DNA from: Bacteroidota bacterium
GTDB taxonomy: Bacteria; Bacteroidota; Bacteroidia; AKYH767-A; OLB10
Direction: 5' to 3'
NCBI GenBank assembly: GCA_947453935.1
Contig: CANGJU010000002.1
Span: forward strand, 754-64,753
DNA length: 64,000 nucleotides
Every line of letters starts with the position of its first letter. The stretch's first letter is position 1. This document shows, one piece after another, positions 3,276 to 37,150 of this stretch. The notes below the pieces were generated by a model. It was not told the DNA's origin. It saw nothing but the letters and a program-made list of their open reading frames with translations, and ran no database searches. The translations under genes and the position numbers were made by a program.

Positions 3276-4256
3276 ATGAAAATTTGTAATAACATCCTTG
3301 AAGCAATTGGTAATACACCAATGGTGCGTTTAAATAAAATTATTGGCGATACTCCTGCTACAGTGTTAGCAAAAGTAGAAACCTTTAATCCGGGTAACTC
3401 AATCAAAGACCGTATGGCGTTGAAGATGATTGAAGATGCAGAGAAAGCAGGCCTAATTAAACCAGGTGGAACCATCATTGAAGGAACATCAGGAAACACA
3501 GGAATGGGATTAGCCATTGCTGCTATTGTTAAAGGTTACAAATGTATTTTCACAACTACCGATAAACAATCGAAGGAAAAGGTAGATGCCTTACGTGCAT
3601 TCGGTGCTGAGGTAATTGTTTGTCCTACCAACGTTGAACCAGAAGACCCTAACTCTTATTATTCTGTTGCTAAACGTTTGAATAAAGAAATCGAGAATTC
3701 TTTTTACCCAAATCAATACGATAACTTATCGAACCGTACTGCTCACTATGAGCAAACTGGACCTGAAATCTGGGAACAGACAGAAGGGAAAATCACGCAT
3801 TTAGTAGTAGGTTCAGGTACAGGTGGTACTATAACGGGTACGGGTATGTACTTGAAAGAAAAAAATCCGAATATTAAAATCTGGGGTATCGATACATACG
3901 GTTCTGCGTTGAAAAAATTCCATGAAACAGGAGTTATCGATCAGAATGAAATTCACTCTTATGTAACAGAAGGTATCGGAGAAGATTTTATTCCTCAGAA
4001 CTACGACTTCAGCATTATTGATCATTTTGAAAAAGTCACTGATAAAGATGCTGCTGTTTACACAAGAGACATTTGTTTACAAGAAGGTATCTGGGTAGGT
4101 AATTCTGCAGGAGCAGCTGTTGCTGGATTAGTTCAATTGAAAGACCAGCTAACAAAAGATGATGTAGTAGTTATCATTTTCCATGACCATGGATCTCGTT
4201 ACATCGGTAAGATGTTTAATCCTGAGTGGATGAGGAAGATGGGGTACAGTGAGTAA
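3276..4256 (+). CDS. PLP-dependent cysteine synthase / cystathionine beta-synthase family enzyme
   Basis: 326 aa with fold-type II PLP motifs: NPGNSIKDRMA (PLP lysine), GTSGNTG, GSGTGGT. Confidence 0.85.
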   Translation: MKICNNILEAIGNTPMVRLNKIIGDTPATVLAKVETFNPGNSIKDRMALKMIEDAEKAGLIKPGGTIIEGTSGNTGMGLAIAAIVKGYKCIFTTTDKQSKEKVDALRAFGAEVIVCPTNVEPEDPNSYYSVAKRLNKEIENSFYPNQYDNLSNRTAHYEQTGPEIWEQTEGKITHLVVGSGTGGTITGTGMYLKEKNPNIKIWGIDTYGSALKKFHETGVIDQNEIHSYVTEGIGEDFIPQNYDFSIIDHFEKVTDKDAAVYTRDICLQEGIWVGNSAGAAVAGLVQLKDQLTKDDVVVIIFHDHGSRYIGKMFNPEWMRKMGYSE

Positions 4257-4261
4257 TGTGC

Positions 4262-4293
4262 TAATTTGACAATTTGCCAATTTGATAATTTGA
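4262..4293. repeat. Four tandem 8-bp units (Y)AATTTG(M)
   Basis: Sequence is taatttga caatttgc caatttga taatttga, directly after the stop at 4256. AATGTGCTA also recurs at about 4254 and about 4340. Confidence 0.6.
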
Positions 4294-4367
4294 AGATATA
4301 TAATAAAGTGTATCTGTAGGATTCTACTTTATTATTTGCTAATGTGCTAGCAATACAATAAATTTTT

Positions 4368-5141
4368 ATGATTACTGATCAGCTCGGAAGGAAAATAAAC
4401 TTGAATTTGCCGGCGAAGCGGATTGTTTCATTAGTTCCTTCGCAAACGGAATTGCTTTTTGATTTAGGTCTTGATGAGGAAGTAATTGGCATCACTAAAT
4501 TTTGCATTCATCCGGAAAATTGGCTTCAAGAAAAAACGATTGTTGGCGGCACTAAGAATTTTCATATTGAAAAAATCAAAGTGTTACAGCCGGATTTAAT
4601 CCTAGCCAATAAAGAAGAAAACACCAAAGAACTCATTGAAGAATTAGCGCTCGATTTTCCTGTTTACATAAGCGATGTAAATACGATTGAGAATGCATTA
4701 CAAATGATTTCCGATGTAGGAATTTTAGTTGGAAAGGAAGATAAAGCATTACAAATCGTTTCAGTAATTAAACAGGCAAGAAGAGATTTATCCAATCAAT
4801 TTAAAAAACCTGCATCCTGTTATTATTTTATCTGGAAAAATCCTTGGTTAACAGTGGGTGGCGATACATTTATCAATACGATGATTGAAGAAGCGGGCTT
4901 TATTTCGCTTTCAAAAAACCAAACACGCTATCCTGAAATCGACCTTGACAATATAGATAAACAGCCAGACTTTTTATTGCTATCGAGTGAACCCTACCCC
5001 TTCAAACAATCAGATGCCGATTATCTGCAAACAAAATTTCCTGCATCAAAGATTGTATTTGTAGATGGCACTTATTTCTCCTGGTATGGGTCCCGTTTAA
5101 CTAAGGCTTTTAGCTATCTATCTGACTTACCTTTTAAATAA
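4368..5141 (+). CDS. BtuF-like / helical-backbone metal receptor (TroA-superfamily substrate-binding protein, possibly cobalamin-binding)
   Basis: 257 aa. RIVSLVPSQTELLFDLGL...VIGITKFC...PDLILAN is typical of class III periplasmic binding proteins. No obvious signal peptide. Confidence 0.65.
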   Translation: MITDQLGRKINLNLPAKRIVSLVPSQTELLFDLGLDEEVIGITKFCIHPENWLQEKTIVGGTKNFHIEKIKVLQPDLILANKEENTKELIEELALDFPVYISDVNTIENALQMISDVGILVGKEDKALQIVSVIKQARRDLSNQFKKPASCYYFIWKNPWLTVGGDTFINTMIEEAGFISLSKNQTRYPEIDLDNIDKQPDFLLLSSEPYPFKQSDADYLQTKFPASKIVFVDGTYFSWYGSRLTKAFSYLSDLPFK

Positions 5142-5188
5142 GGCTGTATTTAATTGATTACTTACCTTTGTAACTCAAATCGCTCGAC

Positions 5189-7477
5189 TTGAAAAAGGTA
5201 CTAATTTGTTTTACACTTCTTATGCTTGCCTTATCACTGCAATGCTATTCCCAAAAAGTGGGATTAGTCTTGAGCGGTGGCGGTGCACGCGGTTTTGCGC
5301 AAATAGGCGTATTAAGGGCGTTGGAAGAAAATAAAATTCCTATTGATTATATCACTGGCGTATCGTCGGGTGCATTAATTGGTTGTTACTATGCAACGGG
5401 AACATCACCTTCGCAACTAGAGCGTTTAGTCACACAAAAAATATTTGCCAAACGAGCCGAAGGACAATTTGATGAAGACAATCTTTATTCTTTTTTAAAA
5501 AATCCTGTTGATGCCAGCTGGATAGAAATAAAGTTAATCAGCGATTCTGTTTTCAAAACTCAATTACCAAGCAACGTAGTCAATGCCGCTGAAATTGATT
5601 TTGCATTAATGGAGAATCTTTCAATTCCAATTGCACGCGCAGGAAATAATTTTGATAGTTTAATTGTTCCCTTTCGATGTGTAGCATCCGACATTACTGC
5701 AAAACGAGAAATCGTATATAATCAAGGCGACTTGTCATTTGCCGTACGTGCCTCTATGTCGTTTCCTTTTTATTACGCCCCTCTACTCGACCAAAACCAT
5801 ATTATCTACGATGGAGGCATTTACAATAATTTTCCAGCGGATGTTTTACAATCGGAGTTTAATCCTGATTTAATCATAGGAGTAAATACTGCAGACACGA
5901 TTGACAGACCGAGTGAAGTCAACTTTTTAAGTCAGCTGAAATCGATGATTCAGCGCTCAACGAATTATACCATGAATCGTGAGCAAGATATTATTATTAC
6001 ACCAAATGTATCCGGCATAGGACTCTTTTCATTCGATGATATCAGAGCAGCAATCGACAGCGGCTATGCGATGGGGTTACGAATGATTCCGCTCATCAAA
6101 TCAAGAATTGGAAACAGAGAAGCAGACACCTTACTACTCGCAGAAAAGCGTAAACAATTTAGTTTCTCGTATCAAGATTTATTAATTGATTCAATAGCCG
6201 TAACAGGTGTAAACACTAAGCAAGCAGATTATATCATCAAAACAATTAATCCAAAAGGTGAAATAATTACTGCAGCAGAATTAAAGCAGAAATGGTTTCG
6301 ATTAGTTGCAGATGAAAACCAGCGTTATTTATTTCCGAGTTTAAAATACAATCCGCAATCAGGGCATTTTATTTTGTGTGTTGATGTACGAAAGAACAAA
6401 GGTGTATCGATCAATTTCGGTGGAAATGTTTCATCGCGACCAATTAACACTGCCTTTATTTCGGCTCAGAAAAATTATTGGGATAAGTATAGTTTAAGAA
6501 CCTTTGCAAGTATTTATTTTGGTAAGTTATATAGCAGCGGACATATTCGTAGTCGTTTGGATGTACCGGGAACAATTCCGTTTTACATAGAGCCATCCGT
6601 CACATTAAACCAATGGGATTTTTATAAAAGCAGCAGTTCATTTTTTGAAGATGTTAAACCTTCTTATCTTGTACAATACGACGAATCCTATGCAATTAAA
6701 TTAGGAACGCCTCTCACCAACAAATTAAAACTAGAAGGTGGAGCGAGCCGCTTTGAAACGAAAGACAAATATTATTTGACGAGAGATTTTACGCAAGCAG
6801 ACACCAGCGACCTGACTGAATTTAATGGAAGCAGTTACTTTCTTGAAGTAGAACAAAACACCTTAAACCGAAAAATGTATGCAACCACCGGATCTAGTTT
6901 GTTTGCACGGTTACGCTATATAAATGGAGATGAAAAAACGTTCCCAGGATCTACAGGCATTCTGCGTGATACAACAACGTATTATCACGAATGGTTTCAA
7001 TTAAATGTAAAATATGAAACGTACTTTAATAGCTTGCGACGATTTAAATGGGGAGTGTTTGGCGAATTAATGTTGAGTGGACAACCTTTCTTTTCAAATT
7101 ATCGAGCGACTGTTTTAGCAGCTCCTGCATTCAATCCGATTGCTGATATGCAAACACAATTTCAGGAAACTTATCGTGCACACAATTATCTGGGCTTAGG
7201 AATTAAAAACCTCATTAGTATTAACGATAACTTTGATGTACGATTAGAAGGATATGCTTTTCAACCTTTCAGAGAAATTTTACAAGAGGAAAATTACAAG
7301 TCGCGCTACGGTGATAATTTTGGCAAGCGTTATTTCGTTGCCACGTTTAATACTATCTATAAAAGTCCGATAGGACCTGTTAGTTTAGCACTAAACTATT
7401 ACGATAAACGAGAGAATCCTGTAGGAATTATTTTCCATATCGGATACATCATCTTTAACAGGAAAGCAATTTACTAA
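5189..7477 (+). CDS. Patatin-like phospholipase fused to a C-terminal Omp85-like beta-barrel (PlpD/type Vd-like architecture)
   Basis: 762 aa with a TTG start and a signal peptide. Patatin motifs are GLVLSGGGARGFAQIGV and GVSSGA (nucleophile serine), plus DGG. The long C-terminal half is rich in alternating aromatic residues. Confidence 0.8.
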   Translation: MKKVLICFTLLMLALSLQCYSQKVGLVLSGGGARGFAQIGVLRALEENKIPIDYITGVSSGALIGCYYATGTSPSQLERLVTQKIFAKRAEGQFDEDNLYSFLKNPVDASWIEIKLISDSVFKTQLPSNVVNAAEIDFALMENLSIPIARAGNNFDSLIVPFRCVASDITAKREIVYNQGDLSFAVRASMSFPFYYAPLLDQNHIIYDGGIYNNFPADVLQSEFNPDLIIGVNTADTIDRPSEVNFLSQLKSMIQRSTNYTMNREQDIIITPNVSGIGLFSFDDIRAAIDSGYAMGLRMIPLIKSRIGNREADTLLLAEKRKQFSFSYQDLLIDSIAVTGVNTKQADYIIKTINPKGEIITAAELKQKWFRLVADENQRYLFPSLKYNPQSGHFILCVDVRKNKGVSINFGGNVSSRPINTAFISAQKNYWDKYSLRTFASIYFGKLYSSGHIRSRLDVPGTIPFYIEPSVTLNQWDFYKSSSSFFEDVKPSYLVQYDESYAIKLGTPLTNKLKLEGGASRFETKDKYYLTRDFTQADTSDLTEFNGSSYFLEVEQNTLNRKMYATTGSSLFARLRYINGDEKTFPGSTGILRDTTTYYHEWFQLNVKYETYFNSLRRFKWGVFGELMLSGQPFFSNYRATVLAAPAFNPIADMQTQFQETYRAHNYLGLGIKNLISINDNFDVRLEGYAFQPFREILQEENYKSRYGDNFGKRYFVATFNTIYKSPIGPVSLALNYYDKRENPVGIIFHIGYIIFNRKAIY

Positions 7478-8800
7478 TTACTCTACTTCTTTATTTCGCT
7501 CTTTACTACGGAAGTAAATCGTGATTGGCACTCCACTAAAGTCGAAGTTCTCACGCATTTTGTTTTCGATAAATCGTTTGTAAGATTCATTGATATACTG
7601 AGGCAGATTACAGAAGAATACAAACGTTGGAGCTTGTCCTGGTAACTGCGTAATGTATTTAATGCTAATAGCCTTTCCTTTTGTTGCAGGCGGTGGATAA
7701 TTATGCACGTACGGCAACATCACCTTATTCAACTTTGAGGTAGCCACTTTTGAAGTTTTATTTTTGAAGACCTGCAATGCAGTTTCTAAAGCTTTAAATA
7801 CACGCTGTTTATTGATTACAGATGTGAAAATGATAGGAACATCTACAAACGGACTTAACTTATCCTTGATTTTTTGCTCGTAATCACGCATAGTATTCGT
7901 TTCCTTTTCTACCAAATCCCATTTATTTACAAGAATAACAACACCCTTACGATTTCTCTCACACAAACGGAAAATATTCATATCTTGAACACCAAGCCCA
8001 TTAGTTGCATCCAGCATCATCAAACAAACATCAGCTTCTTCAATGGCTCTAACGGAGCGCATTACCGAATAAAATTCAATATCTTCTTTTACTACTTTTT
8101 TCTTTCTTAATCCAGCAGTATCAATCAGTAAAAAATCAAAACCGAAACTTTGATAACGAGTGTACAATGTATCACGCGTTGTTCCTGCAATAGGAGTTAC
8201 AATTGCACGCTCTACGCCGATTAGTGTATTCAAAAGAGATGACTTTCCTACATTCGGCTGACCAATAATTGCGATGCGTGGTAATTCAGGATCTATAACA
8301 TCTTCCGGATCGAATACCGCCACCATATCATCCAACAACTCTCCTGTACCACTTCCACTCATTGCAGAAATAGGATATACATCACCCATTCCTAATGCAT
8401 AGAACTCACCTGTTTCATTAATGCGTTTTGAATTATCTACTTTATTGGTAACGAGAAAAATTTTCTTATTACAACGACGTAACATATTCGCCACTTCTTT
8501 ATCCATGTCTGTTAATCCATCCGCAACATCCACCACAAACAAAATCACATTCGCTTCATCAATAGCTAATGCTACCTGCTTACGAATTTCCCCTTCAAAA
8601 ACATCATCCGATCCAGTGATATAACCACCAGTATCAATAACAGAAAAAGTTCTTCCTATCCACTCCGCCTTACCGTAATGTCTATCACGCGTAACACCTG
8701 CTGTTTCATCAACAATTGCTTTACGTGATTCAGTAAGTCGGTTAAACAATGTCGACTTACCCACATTCGGGCGACCAACGATCGCAACTATATTTGCCAT
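7478..8800 (-). CDS. der: Ribosome biogenesis GTPase Der (EngA), tandem GTPase domains
   Basis: 440 aa with two G-domains (GRPNVGKST and GQPNVGKSS) and a KH-like C-terminus. Confidence 0.95.
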
Positions 8801-8809
8801 ATCCTAAAA

Positions 8810-9688
8810 TTATATTTCGTAGCCAAATCGCTTCAGCATATTATCATTATCTCTCCAATCATCAGCCACCTTCACCGTCAGTTCAATAAAGACTTGCTTC
8901 TCTAAAACAGTCTCTAACTTTTTACGCGACTCCATTCCTAACTTCTTAATGGCCTTACCTTGATGTCCAATAAGAATTGCTTTTTGCGTTTCGCGTGCGC
9001 AGTAAATCACAACTGATATACGATCGATGGTTTCATCTTCTTTGTAAGATGTAACAACCACCTCTACCGAATAAGGAATCTCTTGCTGATATAAACTTAA
9101 TATTCGTTCGCGAACAATTTCAGCTGTAAAGAATCGCATGTTACGATCGCTCACCGCTTCATCTTTATCAAAATAAGCAGGACCTTCGGGAATATCTTTT
9201 AAAAGCTCTGTAACAATATTATCGACAGAGAAATTATGCAACGCTGAAATAGGCAGAATAACTTTAGGCTTCAACGTTTCTTTCCAGAATTCCACTGCCT
9301 CTTCTACAACACTTTGTTCGGCGGTATCGATTTTATTAATGATCACATAAAGCGGAACGGAAAGAACCGTTAACTTAACTTTTAAGTCCTCATCAATTTT
9401 TCGGTCATTCACTTCCGTTACATACACTACAACATCAGCATCAGTAAATGTTTCTTCTACCGCTGCCAGCATTTTATGATGTAGCTTATAAGCAGGCTTC
9501 ATGATACCAGGAGTATCCGAAAAAACAATCTGGTAATGCTCATCATTCAAAATACCTTTGATACGATGACGGGTAGTTTGTGCCTTAGGATTTACCATCG
9601 ACAATTCCTGACCCAGTAACGCATTCATTAGCGTACTTTTACCCACATTGGGCTTTCCTACAATATTTACAAAACCTGATTGATGCAT
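8810..9688 (-). CDS. era: GTPase Era
   Basis: 292 aa. [18 protein letters not shown] and DTPG motifs, with a KH domain at the C-terminus. Confidence 0.95.
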   Translation of the reverse strand: MHQSGFVNIVGKPNVGKSTLMNALLGQELSMVNPKAQTTRHRIKGILNDEHYQIVFSDTPGIMKPAYKLHHKMLAAVEETFTDADVVVYVTEVNDRKIDEDLKVKLTVLSVPLYVIINKIDTAEQSVVEEAVEFWKETLKPKVILPISALHNFSVDNIVTELLKDIPEGPAYFDKDEAVSDRNMRFFTAEIVRERILSLYQQEIPYSVEVVVTSYKEDETIDRISVVIYCARETQKAILIGHQGKAIKKLGMESRKKLETVLEKQVFIELTVKVADDWRDNDNMLKRFGYEI

Positions 9689-9738
9689 TTGTGTGCAAAG
9701 ATACCGATTTTATCCGTACCGATTAGAGAATGACCTTC

Positions 9739-11511
9739 TTAAAAAAGGTTGACTAAACCAAAGTGAATTTTTGCATCCTTAAACGACAGTGCCTGATCCT
9801 GTAAACTACCAACCGCATAGGTGAATGAAAAGATGCCTGCTTTTGTTTCGAAATTGATACCAGTACCTAATCCATATGGTTGATCTTTAAAAACATCAAC
9901 CTTCGATTTGTCCTCGTAAAAAGCCTGATTGAAGAACACAAACAAGAATGAATTCTGTTCCAGCAATAAACGATATTCTATTTTACCCATCACTAACGAT
10001 GAAGCTAAAAAACTCGTCTCGTTAAATCCGCGTAACGACTTTAATCCACCAAAACGAATCAATTCATTCGAAAAATATTTCTCTCCTTGAATATGCGAGG
10101 CCGTTGCACCGATATTTAAAACACCAGACTTACCAAGAGTAAAATAATAATCTGCATTTACATCAAAGCGATACTGATTGGTTTTGAAGTCGAGAGAATC
10201 ATACCATACATCTGGAAATTTAATATTCTTCTTAATCGTTCGCTGACCTGCAGTTCCAGTAATATTTACATCGTAACCTTTTGTAGGATTAAATCGATAA
10301 TCTAAATTTTGCCATTGCAATCCTAGCCCATAATTTATCAGTTGCATATCGGCTACATCGGGTAATGAAAGCTGATTTTTATAGGGCTCGACTGAAATCA
10401 GGTTATTTGTTTTTTTACCTGCAAAAATTTTCACCGAATTATTTCCATTCACTAAATACTGAATTCCTAATTGTCGATTAACTTCAAACCAAAGCGTATC
10501 TTTTTTAAACAAGGTAAATTCTCCTTCTACTCCGAATGGCAAATCGAAAATAAACGGATAGTTGATTTTAATTTTCAAGTCTTGCGTTCGAGGCTGCGGA
10601 TTATTCCAGTTGAAATCGATAAGCTCTGCACGCCCAAAAACATTCATCAATTTTATTTTTACATCACCTGTCAAATATACCTTTCCTGATTTTGTATTAT
10701 CAGATTGAAATCCGATTATTCCATTTAACATACTGGCCTTTTTATTTTGCAGATAAAAAACCGGATGGTATGTTTTTTCTCCATATTCAATTTCAAAAGG
10801 ACGAACCTCTGAAACGAATGGAATTTCTTTAATTCTGAATGCCCATTTGCTTAACTTACCTTCCGTAAATAAATCTCCTGTTGACAAATCCAGGTAATTC
10901 AAAAAATAATTTTGATTGAGCTTTGCGTTTCCTTTAATCAGAATAGTATCTAACGTAAAAAGCTCGCCTTTTTCAAAAAGCAAGTCAGCACTAAAATCAG
11001 ATGAATCGCTATTTAAATGAATATTCTCCAGCTTTGCTAACGCGAAGGGGTATCCGTTATTACATCCCCATTTTACAAGGGCATTCATAAGCTTGTTATA
11101 ATAGGCTGGTGTGAAGACTGATTTCGAAGTTTGAAAACCGAGGTTGCTCAATAATTCCTGATCTGCTTTGTTGATATTAATTGAAGAAAAAGTGAACTGT
11201 TTTCCCAACGACCAATACACAACAATTTCATTGGAAGAATAGGTTATGCTATCATAAGATGCTGTCAAATATCCTTTCGATTTTAATTCCGACTCAATTG
11301 CTTGCAAGAATGGAATCATTTTAACTGAATCGATTTTCGATTTGTTTATTTTCTTTTCGAAAGAAGATAACACCAATGACTCCTCTTTATTTTTTGCATT
11401 GAAGCGAATTGAAATATCTGAAAATATACTGGCATAAGCTGTCGATGCAACACCTAACAAAACGAAGAGTGCGACAAAACGAATCATAACTAAACAATTT
11501 CTATTTTTCAT
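9739..11511 (-). CDS. BamA/TamA (Omp85) family outer-membrane protein
   Basis: 590 aa with a signal peptide. POTRA-like N-terminal region, beta-barrel C-terminal region, and a terminal aromatic residue (LVNLF). Confidence 0.65.
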   Translation of the reverse strand: MKNRNCLVMIRFVALFVLLGVASTAYASIFSDISIRFNAKNKEESLVLSSFEKKINKSKIDSVKMIPFLQAIESELKSKGYLTASYDSITYSSNEIVVYWSLGKQFTFSSININKADQELLSNLGFQTSKSVFTPAYYNKLMNALVKWGCNNGYPFALAKLENIHLNSDSSDFSADLLFEKGELFTLDTILIKGNAKLNQNYFLNYLDLSTGDLFTEGKLSKWAFRIKEIPFVSEVRPFEIEYGEKTYHPVFYLQNKKASMLNGIIGFQSDNTKSGKVYLTGDVKIKLMNVFGRAELIDFNWNNPQPRTQDLKIKINYPFIFDLPFGVEGEFTLFKKDTLWFEVNRQLGIQYLVNGNNSVKIFAGKKTNNLISVEPYKNQLSLPDVADMQLINYGLGLQWQNLDYRFNPTKGYDVNITGTAGQRTIKKNIKFPDVWYDSLDFKTNQYRFDVNADYYFTLGKSGVLNIGATASHIQGEKYFSNELIRFGGLKSLRGFNETSFLASSLVMGKIEYRLLLEQNSFLFVFFNQAFYEDKSKVDVFKDQPYGLGTGINFETKAGIFSFTYAVGSLQDQALSFKDAKIHFGLVNLF

Positions 11512-28981: not shown

Positions 28982-30079
28982 ATGAATACCGACTGGATAC
29001 ATCAATCGTTTTTAGATAACAACATGGATCATTGGCTGATTGCCTTTGGGATTATTGTTGGAGGATTAATTCTAAAACGATTTGTATCGCATCAGTTATC
29101 GGGATTTTTATATCGCTTTATTAAGCGACAAGCGGAAGGTGTTCAGGTGAATGAATTGCGTGCCTTACTACGTAAGCCTATTGGATTTTTCATTTTAGTT
29201 GTGTCATTGTATCTGGCAGCAATGCAATTGCATTTCCCTGGTGAATGGCATTTGACATCGAAAGAAGAATTCGGAATTTTATTTGTCATTAATAAAGTAT
29301 TCTTGATGGCATTGTTCTATTCCATTACTTGGATACTCTTACGTCTCGTAGATTTCTTTGCCTTGATTCTACAACAACGCGCATTAGCCACTGAAACGAT
29401 GGTCGATGATCAGCTCGTTCCATTCATCAAAGAATCGTTGAAGTTTGTGGTGATGATTGTTAGTTTCTTCGTGATGTTGGGTGCGGTGTTTCATGTAAAT
29501 GTTGCTTCGTTAATTGCAGGATTAGGAATTGGAGGATTGGCGTTAGCGTTAGCAGCAAAAGACACCTTAGAGAATTTACTCGGAAGCTTTACCATCTTTT
29601 TGGATAAGCCATTTACGCTAGGTGACATTGTTAAAGTTGGTAATGTGCAAGGTAAGATTGAAAAAATCGGATTTCGTTCTACGTTAATTCGAACGATGGA
29701 AAAAACCTTAATCAAGGTTCCCAATAAACGTATGATTGATGCTGATCTGGAAAATATTAGTCTTCGTGATATGATTCGTGCAAGTTTTCATCTCACTTTA
29801 AAAATGCATACTACCCGTGCGCAAATTGAGAACTTCATGAAAGAAGGCACAGCTATTTTACAAAAGCATAAAGAAGTCGCACACGACCCAGAGCCATTTA
29901 TTCGTTTAGATAAAATCACAGATATTGGCTTTGACTTACAGGTTCAGTTTTTCATTAACACTACAGATGCCGACTTCTTTCAAATAGAACGACAAGACAT
30001 TTTATTATCACTCATTGAACTTGCACATCAACACGACATCCGTTTTGATGCACGTTTGCAAGACACAGCTATTAAATAA
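28982..30079 (+). CDS. Mechanosensitive ion channel (MscS family)
   Basis: 365 aa. N-terminal TM helices and the MscS core (LAAKDTLENLLGS...FTLGDIVKVGNVQGKIEKIGFRSTLIRT). Confidence 0.85.
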   Translation: MNTDWIHQSFLDNNMDHWLIAFGIIVGGLILKRFVSHQLSGFLYRFIKRQAEGVQVNELRALLRKPIGFFILVVSLYLAAMQLHFPGEWHLTSKEEFGILFVINKVFLMALFYSITWILLRLVDFFALILQQRALATETMVDDQLVPFIKESLKFVVMIVSFFVMLGAVFHVNVASLIAGLGIGGLALALAAKDTLENLLGSFTIFLDKPFTLGDIVKVGNVQGKIEKIGFRSTLIRTMEKTLIKVPNKRMIDADLENISLRDMIRASFHLTLKMHTTRAQIENFMKEGTAILQKHKEVAHDPEPFIRLDKITDIGFDLQVQFFINTTDADFFQIERQDILLSLIELAHQHDIRFDARLQDTAIK

Positions 30080-30085
30080 AACATC

Positions 30086-30808
30086 ATGAAAAAATATTCC
30101 TTCCTCCTATTCTTTGTTACTTGCTTACTTTATGCATGCAGCAACGGACAAAACACTGGTAATTCTTTAATAGATCCAGCTACATTTAGCGAGAAACTAA
30201 AATCGACTCCCAACCTAACGCTGGTGGATGTCCGCACACCCGAAGAATATGCAGGAGGGCATTTACCAAACGCCATTAACATTGACTGGAACGGAGATCA
30301 ATTTAATGCCACAACAGAAAAACTAGACAAAAGCAAACCGGTATTTGTTTACTGCATGAGTGGCGGAAGAAGTCATAATGCAGCGCAGGACTTACAAAAG
30401 CGCGGCTTTAAAAGCGTAACGGAATTAAAAGGTGGAATATTAAAATGGAGAGCGGCAGGTTTACCAGAAGAAAATGGAACTACATCCAATACTGCTTCTG
30501 GTCTATCTGAAATGACCAAGATGGACATGGATAAAATGATCATTGAGAACAAGCTTATCATATTCGATTTCTTTGCTGAGTGGTGTGGGCCTTGTAAAAA
30601 GTTGAAACCTGAATTAGAAGCACTAGAAGCAGCGCACAAAGGTCAGGTGAAAGTAGTTCGCATCGACGTTGATAAAAACAAAGCCCTAGCCCGAGAACTA
30701 CAGATCACTGAAATCCCCATTATCATGATCTACAAAAACAAACAAATCCAATGGACTGGCACCGGCTATTTCCCGATGAAGGATATTGAGGCAAATTGCG
30801 GATTTTAG
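30086..30808 (+). CDS. Lipoprotein fusing a rhodanese domain to a thioredoxin domain
   Basis: 240 aa with lipobox LLYAC. Rhodanese active-site loop CMSGGRS and thioredoxin WCGPC. Confidence 0.85.
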   Translation: MKKYSFLLFFVTCLLYACSNGQNTGNSLIDPATFSEKLKSTPNLTLVDVRTPEEYAGGHLPNAINIDWNGDQFNATTEKLDKSKPVFVYCMSGGRSHNAAQDLQKRGFKSVTELKGGILKWRAAGLPEENGTTSNTASGLSEMTKMDMDKMIIENKLIIFDFFAEWCGPCKKLKPELEALEAAHKGQVKVVRIDVDKNKALARELQITEIPIIMIYKNKQIQWTGTGYFPMKDIEANCGF

Positions 30809-31036
30809 AGGAATAATTATTTTCAAAATTTTGTATTGCCTTACTACTTAGAAATTGTTTACTCGTTTTACTATTGTAGCTACATCAAAAGTAAAATGGT
30901 AAATTGATTTTAACATTGCTTGAAATTATTCAGGTTATAAAGGCATAAATTTTCAACACGACTACCATTTTAAAAAGCTTCATTAGTTAGCAGTTTTAAA
31001 AACTGCAAAAGACTTTCCCTAAATCATACCAATTGT

Positions 31037-32944
31037 ATGCTTCCCTACTTTAATTTCGCAACATTCAATTTCAAACATAAAACAATCGTGCGTAAACTAT
31101 TCTTATTTCTAATTATAACAACAGCGAGTCAATCGGTGGCTCAAATTAATCTAGATACTGTTATAATTCAAGAGAACCGTATTCAGCTTCCATTTAGCTC
31201 TCAAAATCGTGATATTCGCATCATTGGCAAAAAAGAAATAGCAGCGCTACCTGTTCGCACCGTTTCCGATTTACTTGGCTATACAGCAGGCATCGACCTT
31301 CGTCGCAGAGGACCTGTTGGAACGCAAGCCGACATCAGTATCGATGGTAGCAACTTCGACCAAGTGCTCGTACTGGTAAATGGCATTAAAATGAGTGACC
31401 CTCAAACTGGGCATCATATGCTCAACTTACCAATTCCACTTTCTGCTATTGACCATATTGAAGTACTTCGAGGACCGGCCGCTTCCGTCTACGGAGTTAA
31501 TGCCCTTGCTGGCGCCATCAATATTATTACCAAAACACCTGAATCAAATTCAGTCAGCGTAGAAATGTATGCGGGATCAAGCTTTCAAAGTGATAGCAGC
31601 AATGGAGATACTTACTTTAATATTGGAACACAAGCAGCAGTTTCATTAGTTGGCAAAACGAATAACCAATTGATAACGGCATCGCATGACCAAGGAAATG
31701 GTACGCGCTACAATACAGGATTTAATGCGAGTCGTATTTATTACAAATTACAACAGACAATAAACACCAAAAATAAACTTGACATTGAAGGGGCCTATAT
31801 CAATAATGATTTTGGTGGCAATGGGTTTTATGCTACTCCATACGATGTTAATTCTACCGAAAGAGTTCAAACAGCTTATGGAAGCATTCGACAGACTTAT
31901 TCTCCAAACGAAAAACTCACAATTCGACCTGGTATTGGTTTACGTTATAATGCAGATGATTATATTTTCATTAAACAAGATCCCGACTATTACAAAAACC
32001 ATCACGAGACCAATGTAATTACAGGCGAAGTTCAAAGTACCTACAAGATTAAAAACGGATTTTTAGCAAGCGGAATAGAATATCGCAAAGAAGCTATCAA
32101 CAGCAATAATCTCGGAGAGAGAAATCGTGATAATACTGGTTTTTATGCCGAATACCGCCAATTTATTAAACAAAGCTTTAGTACTACAATTGGTATTTAT
32201 GGAAACTATAACAGCGATTTTGGATGGAACCTCTACCCCGCTATCAATGCTGGTTTAATTATTTCCGACAATTGGAAAATTTATGCAAATGCAGGGACGG
32301 GTCAACGGTTACCAACTTTTACAGACTTATATTACGATGGCCCTTCGAATATAGGCAACGTTGAACTTAAACCGGAAAATGCAACATTCAGTGAAATTGG
32401 TATTCGATATAAAAAAAATATTATAAGTGCGCATTCTGCACTATTTTATAGAAGTGTGAACAATATGATTGACTATGTTCGCTCTTCCAATTCTGCGCCT
32501 TGGCAGCCGATGAACTATCAGACAGTTAACACTTCAGGATTAACAACCGATTTACTTATCGATTTTAATAAAGCTTTACATTGGGGCGAAGGCCACCCTT
32601 TTAATTTGCATGTATCGTATACCTATCTTGATATGTCAATTAAACTACCTGATGCATCATTATCAAAATATTCAATCGATGCACTAAGACATCAGTTCAT
32701 TGCTGGATTTACGATTCCTATTTCAAAGAAAATTTTATTGCACGCGAACGAACGCTATCTATATCGTATTAACGGTAACGACTATACCCTAATTGACGCT
32801 CGACTTGTTTATAAAAGAAATCAATTGAGCATAACTGCCGATATCAGTAATATTCTAAATACGCAATACAAAGAGATAGGAGCAATTCCAATGCCTGGCC
32901 GTTGGTATTCGTTAGGTGCACGCTATGATATTCCTTGGAAGTAA
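31037..32944 (+). CDS. TonB-dependent receptor (BtuB/CirA-size, 635 aa)
   Basis: Signal peptide and plug (DISIDGSNFDQVLVLVNGIKMSDPQTGHH, IEVLRGPAASVYGVNALAGAINIIT). 22-strand-size barrel ending in an aromatic residue. Confidence 0.85.
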   Translation: MLPYFNFATFNFKHKTIVRKLFLFLIITTASQSVAQINLDTVIIQENRIQLPFSSQNRDIRIIGKKEIAALPVRTVSDLLGYTAGIDLRRRGPVGTQADISIDGSNFDQVLVLVNGIKMSDPQTGHHMLNLPIPLSAIDHIEVLRGPAASVYGVNALAGAINIITKTPESNSVSVEMYAGSSFQSDSSNGDTYFNIGTQAAVSLVGKTNNQLITASHDQGNGTRYNTGFNASRIYYKLQQTINTKNKLDIEGAYINNDFGGNGFYATPYDVNSTERVQTAYGSIRQTYSPNEKLTIRPGIGLRYNADDYIFIKQDPDYYKNHHETNVITGEVQSTYKIKNGFLASGIEYRKEAINSNNLGERNRDNTGFYAEYRQFIKQSFSTTIGIYGNYNSDFGWNLYPAINAGLIISDNWKIYANAGTGQRLPTFTDLYYDGPSNIGNVELKPENATFSEIGIRYKKNIISAHSALFYRSVNNMIDYVRSSNSAPWQPMNYQTVNTSGLTTDLLIDFNKALHWGEGHPFNLHVSYTYLDMSIKLPDASLSKYSIDALRHQFIAGFTIPISKKILLHANERYLYRINGNDYTLIDARLVYKRNQLSITADISNILNTQYKEIGAIPMPGRWYSLGARYDIPWK

Positions 32945-32993
32945 AATACCGAGCACAAGACGATTAAAAACTTAAATTACCCACGAATTTAAA

Positions 32994-33098
32994 ATCACTG
33001 AAATCTACATTATCATGCTCTACAAAAACAAACAAATCCAATAGACCGACAAAGGTTATTTTCCTTTGAAGGATATTGAGGTTAATTGTGGGTTTTAG
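32994..33098 (+). pseudogene. Displaced copy B of the 3' end of the rhodanese-thioredoxin gene
   Basis: Ungapped hand alignment to 30704..30808 gives 89/105 identical. Reads IIMLYKNKQIQ*TDKGYFPLKDIEVNCGF* (TGG to TAG). Confidence 0.75.
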
Positions 33099-33104
33099 GA
33101 AAAT

Positions 33105-34088
33105 TTATTTCGACAACTTATTAAAGCGTGTTTGATACGCTTGCCAATAATTTCTTTTCATTCGATCATTTAAAAAAGATGCGTTAATCATCGCTTCTAC
33201 TTTTTCAGATTTAGATAACATAAATGTGATGATAGTATCACATTGCTTTTCACTGATACCTGCTCTATTGCCCAACACTTGAAATTGTTTTTTAATTTTC
33301 CCTTGCGCTAATGAAGGGGGCAAAAGACCATCATCCAGCGCGAAATCTTTATCGGCTATATGCAAGCGCGTATTTAATAAATCGTAAGCAGGACTCAATC
33401 GATAATCGCCCATTGGAGTTTCAATCACAGAAAAATTTTTCAGATGTGCATCACCGTTAGAGAAGAGGTAATTGAACAATATTAACTTAAATAGTTTAGG
33501 TGCCTCCGACTTATAAGCAGGTAAATACTTTTTCATTATTTCAAATAAGTCAGCGTAATTGCCCAGGTATTTATAATGTGCTCCATGAATTTGTGGTGTT
33601 CTACCTGCCAGAGAAGCAAAATCATCTTGTGCCCATTTACTACCATCCTCTTTTACATCGAAACGTTTGGTGAGATAAGCTGGCTCGCCATTACTAAAAA
33701 ACACCAATGCATTTTCTGCAGTATCAATACCATAAACTTGCTGCGCTAATTGCATGGTGAGGTGTTCATTCGCGGGTAGTTGATCGGCATTTTTATTTAC
33801 CGCCGGAATAGGTTTTAATATATAAGCCCCTCTCTCACCTTCATGCGTTAATCGTAATTTATTTTTATCAAGTAGCACTATAAATTTCTCTTGTACACCT
33901 GAGATAGAAATATGCACTACATTATCTTCAAATTTTTCATTTTGCTTGCTGTTAGATTTAGGCGCAGCATAAGGCAACACATGACTTACCTTTCGCCCAT
34001 TAAACATCCGCTTCAAACAAGTACGACTGTACGTATCGAATCCGGGAGCTAAAGTGCCAGGACAATATTTTATTTTTGGTGAGGGCAT
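33105..34088 (-). CDS. hipT: HipA-family Ser/Thr kinase toxin lacking the N-subdomain (HipT-like)
   Basis: 327 aa. Gly-rich loop ISISGVQEKF, catalytic loop GDAHLKNFS, and PAYDLLNT. Confidence 0.85.
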   Translation of the reverse strand: MPSPKIKYCPGTLAPGFDTYSRTCLKRMFNGRKVSHVLPYAAPKSNSKQNEKFEDNVVHISISGVQEKFIVLLDKNKLRLTHEGERGAYILKPIPAVNKNADQLPANEHLTMQLAQQVYGIDTAENALVFFSNGEPAYLTKRFDVKEDGSKWAQDDFASLAGRTPQIHGAHYKYLGNYADLFEIMKKYLPAYKSEAPKLFKLILFNYLFSNGDAHLKNFSVIETPMGDYRLSPAYDLLNTRLHIADKDFALDDGLLPPSLAQGKIKKQFQVLGNRAGISEKQCDTIITFMLSKSEKVEAMINASFLNDRMKRNYWQAYQTRFNKLSK

Positions 34089-34091
34089 GAT

Positions 34092-34412
34092 TTAATTTTT
34101 AATTACGCGAACGGCACCAATTGTATCGTACGATGCGACAGCCAATAGCAAACTGAAATAATCATCCTTATCAATTTTATTTTTTCTGCAAACTGCCTGT
34201 TTGTTGGAACCCTCTGGCAGCATATTATAAAAAAATGGAAATAACTCCTTGGAATGATATTCATTAACAATTTTGGGAAGCGTTAAGCTAATAGCAGGCT
34301 TGCTGGTATCCGACATCCACGAAGAAAAATAAGTGAACGAAAAAGTACCATCATCGTGCTGCATTAATTTTCCAGCTTGCTGATCTTTGTACAAAACGAT
34401 TGCGCTTCTCAT
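34092..34412 (-). CDS. hipS: HipA N-terminal-subdomain protein (HipS-like)
   Basis: 106 aa. MRSAIVLYKDQQAGKL...DGTFSFTY is the HipA N-terminal coupling-domain pattern. Ends 3 nt before hipT, and has a 4-nt overlap with the HTH gene. Confidence 0.8.
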   Translation of the reverse strand: MRSAIVLYKDQQAGKLMQHDDGTFSFTYFSSWMSDTSKPAISLTLPKIVNEYHSKELFPFFYNMLPEGSNKQAVCRKNKIDKDDYFSLLLAVASYDTIGAVRVIKN

Positions 34413-34645
34413 TGATTAGGTATTAATGATTTTACTTGCAGCAATAATTCTAGTCCTAGTACATCTGCCAATTTTTCAATGGTGAGCAATGTAGGATTAC
34501 CTTTTCCGCTCTCCAATTGTTTAAGAGTTCGCAGTCCTACACCCGAGAGTTCGGCCAATGCTTCCTGCGTTAAATGTAGGACTTCGCGTCTTGCTTTTAG
34601 TTGTTGAATTAAATCAGCGTGGTGCATTATATGGCATTTTAGCAT
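34409..34645 (-). CDS. hipB: XRE-family helix-turn-helix protein (HipB-like)
   Basis: 78 aa. HTH region LTQEALAELSGVGLRTLKQLESGKGNPTL. An alternative ATG is at 34627. Confidence 0.85.
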   Translation of the reverse strand: MLKCHIMHHADLIQQLKARREVLHLTQEALAELSGVGLRTLKQLESGKGNPTLLTIEKLADVLGLELLLQVKSLIPNQ

Positions 34646-34685
34646 GCAAATATAACACGATAATCAATAAAATACAATATAATGT

Positions 34686-34697
34686 GCAATATATTGC
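34686..34697. promoter_or_regulatory. Perfect 12-bp palindrome GCAATATATTGC in the hipB upstream region (candidate operator)
   Basis: Self-complementary by inspection, ~40 nt upstream of the hipB start. GTGCAAT recurs at 34746-34752. Confidence 0.35.
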
Positions 34698-34742
34698 TCT
34701 TTAAAAGTGTTTTATTTACAATTTTAGCCTAAATTCGTAAAT

Positions 34743-34762
34743 AAGTGCAATTTAATACACTT
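34743..34762. promoter_or_regulatory. Inverted repeat AAGTG-N10-CACTT (candidate second operator)
   Basis: aagtgcaatttaatacactt. Shares GTGCAAT with the first palindrome. Confidence 0.3.
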
Positions 34763-34806
34763 TCGAAAGGCTAAACTATAATTTATCAATGGCTACAATC
34801 TTTTAA

Positions 34807-34904
34807 AAATCTCCCTCATCATGAACTACAAAAACAAGCAAATGTCATGGACAGGCACGGGATATATTCCGATGAAGTATTTAGAGGTGAATTGTGTGTT
34901 TTAG
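34807..34904 (+). pseudogene. Displaced copy C of the 3' end of the rhodanese-thioredoxin gene
   Basis: Ungapped hand alignment to 30711..30808 gives 77/98 identical. Reads ISLIMNYKNKQMSWTGTGYIPMKYLEVNCVF*, with no upstream coding body. Confidence 0.7.
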
Positions 34905-34974
34905 ACTTTAGAAAAACAGCAGAACCCAATCATAAATAAAAAGCTATCCAATTACTTTTCTTGAATAAGGAATA

Positions 34975-35250
34975 TTAAATGGATTTTCCTCTAATAAAAA
35001 CCATCATCACCCAAACCACCACCTGAGCAATCAGGATAATCGCAGAGTAAAACAAAACCGCAAGGGAGCCACCACCTTTAAAATTTTCCAGGTCGGTGAA
35101 AAGAAGGATGTTTAAGAAAAGTCCACCGAGCAATAGGGTTGTTTTTAAGATCCTTTGTGATTTATTTCTAATCAAACCAACAATTGCCATTAGATAAAAT
35201 ACAAAGTAACAGGCATACAAAACACTAAACTCATTATCGGTGGGCAGCAT
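34975..35250 (-). CDS. Small membrane protein with three hydrophobic helices
   Basis: 91 aa. The helices are VLYACYFVFYLMAIVGLI, TTLLLGGLFLNILLF and LAVLFYSAIILIAQVVVWVMMVF. Lies 22 nt downstream of the 53-aa ORF. Confidence 0.45.
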   Translation of the reverse strand: MLPTDNEFSVLYACYFVFYLMAIVGLIRNKSQRILKTTLLLGGLFLNILLFTDLENFKGGGSLAVLFYSAIILIAQVVVWVMMVFIRGKSI

Positions 35251-35272
35251 CGAAAAATGAAATTAAATGCGA

Positions 35273-35434
35273 CTAACCAACTTTTACTTTTGATTTACGA
35301 ATTATAGAAGATGGTCTAGATTTTTTCGCCTTTAATTTCTTTATAAATACACTTAATGCAATCTCCTCCTCCTTAGTTAGCGGTTTGGGATCAACAATAA
35401 TTTCTAAATCGTCTTTTATAGTCTTTTTTTTCAT
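35273..35434 (-). CDS. 53-aa charged protein (acidic N-half, Lys-rich tail), not in the ORF track
   Basis: My translation is MKKKTIKDDLEIIVDPKPLTKEEEIALSVFIKKLKAKKSRPSSIIRKSKVKVG*. Its ATG overlaps the TGA of the upstream 173-aa ORF (ATGA at 35431-35434). Confidence 0.4.
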   Translation of the reverse strand: MKKKTIKDDLEIIVDPKPLTKEEEIALSVFIKKLKAKKSRPSSIIRKSKVKVG

Positions 35435-35952
35435 GGATTGTATTTGTTTAATAAATGAAGTGAGGCTTTGGTATCTAAAATCAATAAATGACCACCGAAG
35501 TGAATTGCGCCTATCTTTTCAACGTAGTGCTTAATTAATACCGTTTTGGCTCTAAAGGAAACGAAGCCTTCTTTCCCATTTTGGAAAGATAATTTACATG
35601 CGTAGGCTATTAAATTACCCGCAACACCAAGATATACTTTATTCCTGCCAATATTAAAGGGGGCATTTTCAATTAAATGAATATACACGTTATCAGCAGT
35701 AATGGAAACACTAATTAGACCTTGGATAATTTCCGTGTTATTTACGATTGTTAATTTAAAAACATCCCGATCTGGATATAACAACTCCCCTTTCCAGTCG
35801 AATTTCCATCCATTCTTTTTTGCAATTCCCTTCAGATCAACTTTTGTTAAAGGCAATATACATGTTGGAAAGCTGTCTCCTGTAATGGCGTTTTCAATAG
35901 AGTTTGTTAATTTGTCTACCTGTATATCAATAAGAATGCTTCTGCTTTTCAC
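35431..35952 (-). CDS. Hypothetical 173-aa protein with a possible GNAT-like fold
   Basis: GTG start. The core IHLIENAPFNIGRNKVYLGVAGNLIAYACKLSF...GFVSFRAKTVLIKHY resembles an acyl-CoA N-acyltransferase beta4-alpha3 region. There is no clean Q/RxxGxG/A motif. Confidence 0.5.
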   Translation of the reverse strand: MKSRSILIDIQVDKLTNSIENAITGDSFPTCILPLTKVDLKGIAKKNGWKFDWKGELLYPDRDVFKLTIVNNTEIIQGLISVSITADNVYIHLIENAPFNIGRNKVYLGVAGNLIAYACKLSFQNGKEGFVSFRAKTVLIKHYVEKIGAIHFGGHLLILDTKASLHLLNKYNP

Positions 35953-36098
35953 ATAATAAAGATAAGGAATTCAATAGATTATTTTCAACGAAAAATTTCA
36001 TTTTTGATATTACGATGCATTTAACGTAGATTTTTATTTTCGAAGCAATTTTCGCCATAATACAAATCACTTTCGCGTGCACACTTCAACGTTGCATT

Positions 36099-36170
36099 TT
36101 CAAATCGCGATGCCCTTCGAGCCACCTTACCTCGACAAGCTCGGCACAAGCAGGGACCGCCTTGCGATCA
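36099..36170. repeat. GC-rich intergenic repeat element, long form
   Basis: Starts with TTCAAATCGCGATGCCCTTCGAG and contains CAGGGACCGC..GCGA.CAAA. The 23-nt head is identical to 36233-36255. Confidence 0.55.
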
Positions 36171-36232
36171 AAGTAGCCTAATGCGTATTTCTAAAATTCC
36201 AAATACTGACGGAAAAATCAACTCATTACATC

Positions 36233-36285
36233 TTCAAATCGCGATGCCCTTCGAGTCGCCTCAGGGACCGCGTCGCGAGCAAATC
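36233..36285. repeat. GC-rich intergenic repeat element, short form
   Basis: Has the same 23-nt head and the CAGGGACCGC core, but lacks the ~29-nt insert CCACCTTACCTCGACAAGCTCGGCACAAG. TCGCGA arms can pair. Confidence 0.55.
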
Positions 36286-36343
36286 AGCACATTATCAAAT
36301 TAACGTAAAGCGTGTTCCGAACCTTTGGAACTCTGCTTTGCGG

Positions 36344-37150
36344 CTACCAGCCTCCGCCAGCGCCACCGCCGCCTGAGCTGCCGCCGCCGAAACCACCGAA
36401 GCCACCGCTAGAGCCACCATAACCACCGCCGTAACCAAAGCCACCGCTACCTCTAGTAAAATCAGAATAGCGCCCACTCTGCGTGCGAGTAGCTACGTTT
36501 AAAAGCTGCCAAGCTACCCAAAAGGATATACCATTGTTAACAGCGTATCTGCGAACACTGATAACTTTGAAAATAATTATCAATGCAAAAAAGAATAACA
36601 CGAAAAATATTGGTCCTGATCTAAACTTTCGAAAGCCCTTTTTCTGAGCTGTCGCTTTATAAGGCTCGCCTTTTACAGCATTAATTATCTTACTAACGCC
36701 ATTGTCTATACCCTCAAAGTATTTTCCTGATTTAAAAAACGGACGAATATCATTGGTGATTATCTTACCACACAAAGCATCAGGCAATGCGCCTTCAATC
36801 CCGTAACCAGTAGTAATAAACATCTGACGATCATTTATTGCTACACAAAGTAATACACCATTCTCATTACCCTTCGTTCCTATCTTCCATTCGTTAAACA
36901 AACCTGTTGAATACTCACTGATAGGCATATCCGAAGTTGTCTCAATTACTACGACTGCAATCTGTGTGGACGTAGAATCTGCAAAGGCAACCAGTTTATC
37001 TTCTAACGCCTTTACCTGATTAGCTTCTAACGTATTTGTGAAATCATTAACAAGTCTTGGTGGATCTGATGGTTTCGGATACTCGACCTGCGCCCAGCTA
37101 TTGCTGAACATAGTAATTAATAATACGAGTACAATTCCGAGTTTTTTCAT
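36344..37150 (-). CDS. TPM-domain protein (YgcG-like) with TM segment and Gly-rich C-terminal tail
   Basis: 268 aa with a signal peptide and a TPM phosphatase-like domain. The tail is GSGGFGYGGGYGGSSGGFGGFGGGSSGGGGAGGGW. Confidence 0.8.
   Translation of the reverse strand: MKKLGIVLVLLITMFSNSWAQVEYPKPSDPPRLVNDFTNTLEANQVKALEDKLVAFADSTSTQIAVVVIETTSDMPISEYSTGLFNEWKIGTKGNENGVLLCVAINDRQMFITTGYGIEGALPDALCGKIITNDIRPFFKSGKYFEGIDNGVSKIINAVKGEPYKATAQKKGFRKFRSGPIFFVLFFFALIIIFKVISVRRYAVNNGISFWVAWQLLNVATRTQSGRYSDFTRGSGGFGYGGGYGGSSGGFGGFGGGSSGGGGAGGGW

Follow-up and report, generated by a model that had tools for sequence, protein, structure and literature searches.

The 64-kb window analysed here, a stretch of an ENA metagenome contig with 36.6% GC, carries a gene for a rhodanese-thioredoxin lipoprotein (trx), and decaying copies of the 3' end of this gene (relics) lie among the cargo genes downstream of it. 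The source belongs to a genus-level clade of uncultured freshwater Bacteroidota, in which the interval between trx and the convergent gene TPM268 forms a small flexible genomic islet and acts as a recombination hotspot. We explain the relics, with slightly more belief than doubt, by serial displacement of the gene end through homologous and illegitimate recombination of segments from related lineages. The polymorphism of the interval, the decay of the relics, the remains of a full-length pseudogene and the mosaic breakpoints are seen in the sequences, and no recombinase was found in the loci scanned. The pattern resembles ordinary recombination in a hotspot of gene exchange rather than a new class of mobile element. 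Its value is a readable record of hotspot evolution, and it is more richly polymorphic than the single window showed.

Copies of the gene end and the variable interval

The last 249 nt of trx (30086–30808, forward strand; Pfam Rhodanese and Thioredoxin) were used as a blastn query against the whole window. Besides the self match of the functional end, copy A (30560–30808), two copies were detected: copy B at 32994–33098 with 84.8% identity over 105 nt (89/105; E = 3e-29) and copy C at 34807–34904 with 78.6% identity over 98 nt (77/98; E = 2e-18). There is no fourth copy in the window, the next best match having an E value of 0.15. The initial annotation, made from the letters of the window, had counted the same fractions by hand. 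A repeat search places the segments 30690–30808, 32980–33098 (82%) and 34786–34904 (68%) in register over 119 nt. TTTTAG terminates all three copies, and similarity is lost within a few nucleotides beyond it. Thus, the common right end stands as annotated. The left end of B does not, as homology to trx, judged against relatives, reaches about 32965–32980 and not only 32994.

At the protein level, B corresponds to residues 201–240 of the lipoprotein and C to residues 207–240, and no further trx-like sequence was detected upstream of B or C in the window. As annotated, B has a TGG codon changed to TAG, and the frame of C is open and reads KISLIMNYKNKQMSWTGTGYIPMKYLEVNCVF up to the stop. The longest identical runs are 23 nt between A and B and 12 nt between A and C, in a stretch also conserved as coding sequence; the most conserved 23-mer of the gene end is CTACAAAAACAAACAAATCCAAT. 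According to these comparisons, we delimit the functional end (A, the last ~145 nt, holding the 23-mer) at 30664–30808, relic B at 32965–33098 (robust homology from about 32975–32980, weaker to 32965) and relic C, the most decayed fragment, at 34800–34904, all on the forward strand. Between A and B lies a TonB-dependent receptor (TBDR) gene, and between B and C a HipBST toxin–antitoxin operon, whose hipT stop is separated from B by a 6-nt gap.

The same neighbourhood is present on three further contigs, and the array TBDR–B–HipBST–C–orf91 was assembled independently in two related loci, L150 and L151 (loci are designated here by L and a number). Therefore, the three-copy structure is unlikely to be an assembly artefact. 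Nor does the unit behave as a dispersed repeat or a miniature inverted-repeat transposable element, a possibility that the initial annotation had set against its own reading: no copies were found elsewhere in the window, outside the interval in related loci, or in viral, plasmid and phage collections. The trx-end repeat had no match in the plasmid and phage collections, and its C-terminal peptide had none in viral contigs. A 17-nt core pattern gave 37 matches in viral contigs; all were chance matches without extended similarity.

About 15 related loci from metagenomes and metagenome-assembled genomes (MAGs), representing at least 10 lineages and partial genomes, were compared. Their core order is GDH–MscS–trx–variable interval–TPM268–TPM144–LemA–methyltransferase. 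The left flank is the MscS-type channel gene (28982–30079, forward strand; Pfam MS_channel), with 88–95% amino acid identity in all related loci, and the right flank is the TPM-phosphatase gene TPM268 (268 aa; 36344–37150, reverse strand). Against L002, whose trx is 88% identical at the amino acid level, homology runs to 3 nt beyond the trx stop and is back exactly at the TPM268 stop (36344). Therefore, the variable interval is 30809–36343, between the two convergent core genes. Homologues of trx number 2041 at E ≤ 1e-20; close relatives have 82–93% identity, and the nearest named relatives are Fluviicola-type Flavobacteriales with about 50%. In more distant loci, whose trx is at most 59% identical, the gene occurs once and no gene-end repeats follow it; the phenomenon is therefore confined to one clade. 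A metagenome scan with a trx protein alignment gave mostly distant thioredoxins among the matches listed, L059 being the useful one, and no further variant of the locus came from matching the identical LemA protein. The loci L045 (GenBank CAMBYJ010000207) and L046 (GenBank CALQOD010000107) are from MAGs whose records are titled 'Chitinophaga pinensis', a species label that looks wrong.

Between trx and TPM268 the content differs from lineage to lineage. Relic-free loci carry an orf91-like gene alone (L049), orf146 alone (L002/L003) or a TBDR alone (L048, 85% amino acid identity, without a second copy). L050 has two other genes and an orf91-like gene; L047 has about 210 nt, a relic and an orf91-like gene; L045 has TBDR, relic B and orf146. 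HipBST immediately follows trx in L059, L146 and L147, and in L146 a relic of the R3 family, to which C belongs, is located beyond the hipB promoter. In L004, L005, L046, L148 and L142 the order is TM_HPP (an HPP membrane protein), a trx pseudogene and HipBST; L005, L142 and L148 end at HipBST, and L004 and L046 continue with a relic and unrelated distal cargo. L150/L151 have TM_HPP, TBDR, B, HipBST, a relic and orf91, and L150 covers the entire interval, with the array behind a different trx allele. Trx-end copies equivalent to A, B or C are present in L004, L045, L046, L047, L142, L146 and L150. The synteny comparison proposed in the initial annotation thus came out as predicted: some sites carry one cargo and no relic, the same repeats enclose different cargo in different lineages, and one cassette can stand in more than one background. 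The view taken there, that the copies delimit discrete units with presence/absence polymorphism, is borne out across the loci.

Each cargo is a plain neighbour of the live trx in some lineage: TBDR in L048, orf146 in L002/L003, the orf91-like gene in L049 and HipBST in L059, L146 and L147. In several cases a relic and the gene following it resemble one other lineage: the right half of B or the second copy of L004 with HipBST resembles L059/L146, the second copy of L045 with orf146 resembles L002, and C or the second copy of L047 with orf91 resembles L049. A proposal that a relic and the cargo to its right move together in all cases was abandoned, as B accompanies its left-hand TBDR in the window, L045 and L150. 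This TBDR and B unit occurs in two right-hand contexts, orf146 (L045) and HipBST (window and L150). The R3 relics follow hipB in L004, L046, L146 and L150 and occur without HipBST in L047. Because orf91-like genes adjoin TPM268 in L047, L049, L050 and L150, orf91 is probably the oldest resident of the interval. No homology was found among the distal cargo genes of different arrays.

Decay and mosaic structure of the relics

The codon positions distinguish relics from live genes. Live trx alleles vary 3/3/33 over the three codon positions (33 of the 39 variable sites are third positions), whereas the differences of C from the gene consensus are distributed 7/4/6 (p = 0.52) and those of B 3/5/6. 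Nearly all relics carry stop codons; C is open. Because of the stop codons and the even spread, unlike that of live alleles, the relics are neutral pseudogene stumps. The suggestion, drawn from synonymous differences, that C evolved as coding sequence is therefore not upheld: C is the oldest trx fragment in the window, with a frame open by chance. Decay grows with distance from the gene (B is 90/87% and C 77/81% identical to the best allele), which fits an arrangement with the newest unit next to the gene and older ends pushed outward. Together with the cargo polymorphism of the relatives, this sustains the structural reading of the initial annotation, serial insertion beside the gene with displacement of older ends. 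That the copies end sharply at the stop codon calls for no recombination site: conserved coding sequence stops there, and lineage-specific cargo starts.

One class of relics retains more than the gene end. In L004, the 150 nt directly upstream of the copy adjoining hipT encode stop-ridden trx residues 2–56, followed in another frame by residues ~198–240. This N-terminal remnant is 60% identical to the P0009 allele versus 49% to the resident allele (E = 6e-15). In L142, the second trx is collinear with the live gene of L059 except for an internal deletion of about 420 nt. The hipT-adjoining copy is accompanied by N-terminal coding remains in L004/L005, L148 and L142; L046 is 97.5% collinear with L004 here, and its N-terminal piece is below the tblastn cut-off. 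Since N-terminal remains (residues 2–56) and the C-terminal part both persist, the relic was a full-length second copy, and the relic of the TM_HPP arrays is what remains of an entire additional trx gene that came from a different lineage, not a bare attachment (att) site. The initial annotation had named remnants of tandem paralogues as a refutation; such remnants exist for this relic class, and B and C of the window have no trx remains upstream. In L150 only the first ~15 codons of the second trx are left, fused to the TBDR start. At 3840–3940 of L150 (reverse complement), TM_HPP, the second-trx start and TBDR meet in a patch of about 20 nt partly similar to both partners (CTAATTCAACTATTGTATTC), a candidate for a microhomology-mediated deletion or an illegitimate join.

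The arrays are mosaics. The arrays of the window and L150 correspond over 4.2 kb, beginning with the TBDR start and reaching orf91, and are 91.6% identical there; the two trx genes are only 79.5% identical. Thus, array and trx allele are uncoupled, and arrays have been exchanged between lineages. Along the array the identity is ~97% in TBDR and the left half of B, ~91% in the right half of B and HipBST, 61–79% in C and ~89% in orf91; the step from 97% to ~91% falls inside B, in the interval with the 23-nt identity block CTACAAAAACAAACAAATCCAAT. L004 and L046 agree at 99% until ~150 nt short of the R3 stop; identity falls to ~75% within the relic, and the sequences beyond it are unrelated. In the comparison of L150 with L046, the left half of R3 is exactly alike and the right half is different, with the breakpoint in the 23-mer interval. 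In that of L150 with L045, all of B is alike and divergence begins at the B stop codon. Breakpoints are thus located inside relics, in the 23-mer interval, or at relic edges. This pattern is that of homologous recombination with the relic as the sole homology between otherwise different arrays, and a single-core site-specific enzyme would not give the edge breakpoints.

These data bear on a purely vertical history, in which trx and its neighbours were duplicated in tandem in situ in ancient times and lost differentially with no horizontal input. The full-length second trx that once existed in the TM_HPP arrays and the evident deletional decay agree with such a history. However, the second-copy remnant is closer to the allele of another lineage than to the resident one, array and trx identities are discordant between the window and L150 with steps at the relics, the near-identical L004 and L046 bear unrelated cargo beyond R3, and the outgroups at 59% identity or less are single-copy. 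We therefore regard a vertical history as highly improbable.

Proposed mechanism of displacement and recombination machinery

Under serial displacement, DNA from a related lineage would enter with its own trx end, or a whole trx, plus the downstream cargo, and recombination would be anchored in the conserved left flank GDH–MscS–trx. The usual outcome would be replacement of the cargo. Occasionally the distal join would be illegitimate or fall in an earlier relic, so that a trx end with cargo is added beside the gene and the resident end with its cargo is pushed downstream. The displaced, redundant trx would then decay by substitution and deletion to a 3' stump of ~100–145 nt, as in B and C, or to an N- plus C-terminal stump, as in relatives. 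Once a relic is present, a cassette would have homology on both sides, trx on the left and the relic on the right, and cargo with its relic could be moved, swapped or lost by RecA-type recombination; it could enter any trx-bearing genome by double crossover without a dedicated recombinase. This two-sided homology explains the presence of TBDR and B in the orf146 background (L045) and in the HipBST background (window and L150). For the window, the likely history would run from trx–orf91 through trx–HipBST–R3–orf91 (the L146 type) to trx–TBDR–B–HipBST–C–orf91. In this scheme, how the recombination is anchored, that the first joins were illegitimate and by which route DNA enters are inferences. 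As in displacement arrays, truncated older copies stand with neighbours of other lineages, are nonfunctional, decay neutrally and have any length, and the arrays are mosaic. At the novel junctions, partial similarity (~20 nt) was seen once, in L150.

Several points weigh against serial displacement. The 3'-only families B and R3 begin robust homology at nt 605 and nt 607–608 of the 723 nt of trx, and random illegitimate joins are not expected to coincide so closely. B and R3 may also share odd features further left; a comparison of the leftmost ~25 nt for shared derived features gave ~55–62% identity in every pair. The relics come solely from the trx side, with none from TPM268 in any array. 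The founding joins are presumed, the L150 junction being the sole one seen with microhomology; natural competence or another route of chromosomal DNA entry has to be assumed for the clade; and a recombinase may be encoded elsewhere, since the genomes are partial. Survival bias, with long repeats deleted by recombination, could explain part of the coincidence of left limits, and a join biased towards the anchor end could explain another part; the coincidence is not fully explained.

Some of these points suit site-specific accretion, in which integrase-less cassettes, similar to cis-mobilizable elements (CIMEs) or satellites, would carry an attP mimicking the last ~120–145 nt of trx and be inserted serially into the 3' end of the gene by a tyrosine or serine recombinase acting in trans, B and C being attR-type ends. 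Discrete, polymorphic cargo units are bracketed by gene-end repeats in the same orientation, and TBDR with B is followed by orf146 in one background and by HipBST in others. Robust homology of B and of R3 starts at almost the same trx position, a stretch of ~25 nt with the conserved 23-mer holds two independent breakpoints, and only the trx side has left relics. However, no recombinase was found. By Pfam, no integrase, transposase or excisionase domain was detected in the window open reading frames scanned, which cover the whole window, in agreement with the initial annotation, and no recombinase domain was detected in the cargo proteins tested from the related loci. The repeat is also absent from the viral, plasmid and phage collections searched. 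The site-specific recombinase that the model of the initial annotation requires thus has no counterpart in the loci, in the window or beside any copy in these collections. Window scans gave no tRNA and no Rfam match.

The structure of the site argues in the same direction. No identical core extends beyond the coding-conserved stretch, and neither dyad symmetry nor significant structure was detected in the repeat. A whole-gene pseudogene class exists, the TM_HPP insertion duplicating trx from its start and not from a 3' site. Apart from the two in the 23-mer interval, breakpoints coincide with relic edges instead of a single core. Nor is the right half of the live end tied to the cargo: that of the window is 97% identical to that of L002 despite different cargo. 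HipBST at unrelated genomic sites (75–78% identity) has no flanking repeats; therefore, the repeats belong to the trx locus and not to the cargo. The single-cargo loci L002, L048 and L049 have no second copy. Such relic-free loci might pass for empty sites restored by excision, but homologous recombination is equally expected to give them. On this balance site-specific accretion is possible but rather doubtful. The bolder form of it, in which the trx end is a true attachment site for recombinase-less Bacteroidota cassettes with tail mimics of ~120–145 nt, served in trans in an integron-like manner, is unlikely; it is kept alive by the shared left limit of B and R3, the one-sided relics and the two breakpoints at the 23-mer. 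Should a recombinase acting in trans come to light, the locus would represent a new cassette system of the Bacteroidota.

A further possibility is that the repeat has a function of its own, as an RNA or DNA element retained beside each convergent cargo gene, such as an antisense terminator or 3' untranslated region for hipT, orf146 or orf91. Genes to the right of relics are mostly on the minus strand and end 6–70 nt from the trx stop, and a weak terminator-like hairpin with a T-run is present on the minus strand inside copy A (30765–30748). In the right half of B (33040–33075), judged against the B copy of L150, the second copy of L045 and the live genes, paired substitutions convert CACCGG-N7-CCGATG into the perfect hairpin CAAAGG-TTATTTT-CCTTTG. 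The change may have arisen by chance or may reflect constraint by the formation of the hipT 3' end. The hairpin of the live gene pairs better on the minus strand, where G-U replaces a C-A mismatch. On the other hand, most relics lack the hairpin, folding energies on the minus strand are like those of shuffled sequences (z from −0.9 to +1.3), hairpin and T-run are separated in B, and Rfam gives no match. The search for an antisense terminator inside the repeat gave one weak match, in copy A only. That the repeat is such a functional element is quite improbable. It would explain the survival of stumps of ~100–145 nt, and would add to serial displacement instead of replacing it.

Comparison with known systems and features of the cargo

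The closest likeness to serial displacement is found in toxin arrays. For effector–immunity arrays of the Vibrio type VI secretion system (T6SS), homologous and rare homology-facilitated illegitimate recombination without a recombinase was proposed (Kirchberger et al., 2017, PMC5361080). Displacement of Rhs C-termini and orphan cdiA-CT/cdiI modules of contact-dependent inhibition (CDI) are a precedent as cited in that paper (Jackson et al., 2009). As in our locus, a conserved gene is followed by older truncated fragments, each before its own former partner, new modules enter beside the live gene, and arrays are shuffled between strains by homologous recombination. Here, however, the gene is a housekeeping-type rhodanese-thioredoxin lipoprotein and not a polymorphic toxin, and the repeated part is its conserved 3' end, whereas the toxin genes have a conserved core followed by a variable tip. 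The cargo has no relation to trx (TonB receptor, toxin–antitoxin system, HPP membrane protein, defence-like genes), and no selection such as immunity retention is obvious for keeping the displaced units.

Other systems share single features. Integrase-less accretion at gene 3' ends is known from streptococcal cis-mobilizable elements beside integrative and conjugative elements, from tRNA-linked additive islands and from tycheposon-type arrays; in CIME-type systems at least some elements at the site have an integrase, and the att cores are short and identical. The locus is similar in its tandem cargo split by direct repeats of the target-gene 3' end, with integrase-less units, and differs in that no integrase was found, one repeat class is a whole-gene pseudogene, and the repeats are long (100–145 nt), diverged and heterogeneous. 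Integron cassettes are also recombinase-less, are inserted promoter-proximally so that older ones are pushed outward, and have a repeated linker. Here, no intI integrase was detected, the linkers are gene fragments without an attC-like fold (no z-score is significant, and the copies do not agree in theirs), and the cargo orientation is mixed. Hotspots or flexible genomic islets flanked by core genes and carrying defence or toxin–antitoxin cargo are a general concept, and the variable interval between convergent core genes, with its toxin–antitoxin cargo and, in L004, HEPN and MkoA-like helicase genes, belongs there. To our knowledge, most described hotspots of this kind leave no fossil record of successive events, whereas displaced gene ends here record order and junctions.

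From these records one can read in what order units arrived, where they were joined, and how a receptor, a toxin–antitoxin system and defence-like genes were later shuffled among uncultured lineages in the wild. They suggest that chance duplication of a gene tail may turn neighbouring genes into portable cassettes with two homology arms, without mobile-element machinery.

In the window, cargo unit 1 (30809–32964, forward strand) consists of a 228-nt AT-rich spacer and the TBDR gene (31037–32944; Pfam Plug and TonB_dep_Rec_b-barrel). It is also present in L045 (97% amino acid identity) and L150 (95%), and the 85% orthologue of L048 stands directly after trx. Cargo unit 2 (33105–34645, reverse strand) comprises hipT (33105–34088), hipS (34092–34412) and hipB (34409–34645). 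HipBST systems consist of HipB, an antitoxin-like helix-turn-helix protein, HipS, equivalent to the N-terminal subdomain of HipA, and HipT, equivalent to its C-terminal domain. The Pfam matches here are HTH_3/HTH_31 for the 78-aa protein, Couple_hipA (E = 2.6e-22) for the 106-aa protein and HipA_C (E = 1.2e-40) for the 327-aa protein. According to gene order and size, the unit is a predicted tripartite HipBST operon with HipB, a HipS of ~100 aa and a HipT kinase of ~330 aa. The region upstream of hipB (34646–34799, reverse strand), collinear with L004 to 34763, has short repeated palindrome-like motifs. Such repeats, GTGCAnTATATnGC, were noted at 34622–34760, with AAGTGCAATTTAATACACTT adjoining relic C; they are conserved in L004, L046, L047, L146 and L150 and could be HipB operators.

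The distal cargo (34975–35952, reverse strand) consists of orf91 (34975–35250), orf53 (35273–35434) and orf173 (35431–35952). The last two overlap by 4 nt (35273–35952) as a two-gene module with a toxin–antitoxin-like layout. Neither has a Pfam or PADLOC family, and both were found only in the version of the array in the window. At 36092–36288, between orf173 and TPM268, near the right end of the variable interval and still within it, there are two copies of a relatively GC-rich unit of ~60–70 nt with internal inverted symmetry (TTGCATTTTCAAATCGCGATGCCCTTCGAG...CAGGGACCGC..TGCGA). The unit has no other copies in the window, and a 31-nt piece of it matches L049 near the TPM268 end.

In L004, the sequence beyond the third relic (3761–10816) encodes a HEPN protein of the pEK499_p136 type, an SF1 helicase resembling Mokosh MkoA (PADLOC, E = 8e-55), a 624-aa protein of no assigned function and a radical-SAM/B12-binding protein, a defence-like cargo; L046, 97.5% identical to L004 up to the relic, has unrelated genes beyond it. 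Several ends of long metagenome contigs (L146, 191 kb; L059; L142; L147) lie no more than a few hundred bases from a relic, L146 stopping 190 nt beyond R3, as expected if co-existing strains differ at the locus. Far from the array, at 62459–63358 (reverse strand), the window encodes a 299-aa protein with three HHH_3 helix-hairpin-helix stretches (E = 2.7e-30), which we take to be a ComEA-type DNA-binding fold. If this protein marks a capacity for DNA uptake, it would bear on the entry of chromosomal DNA from relatives.

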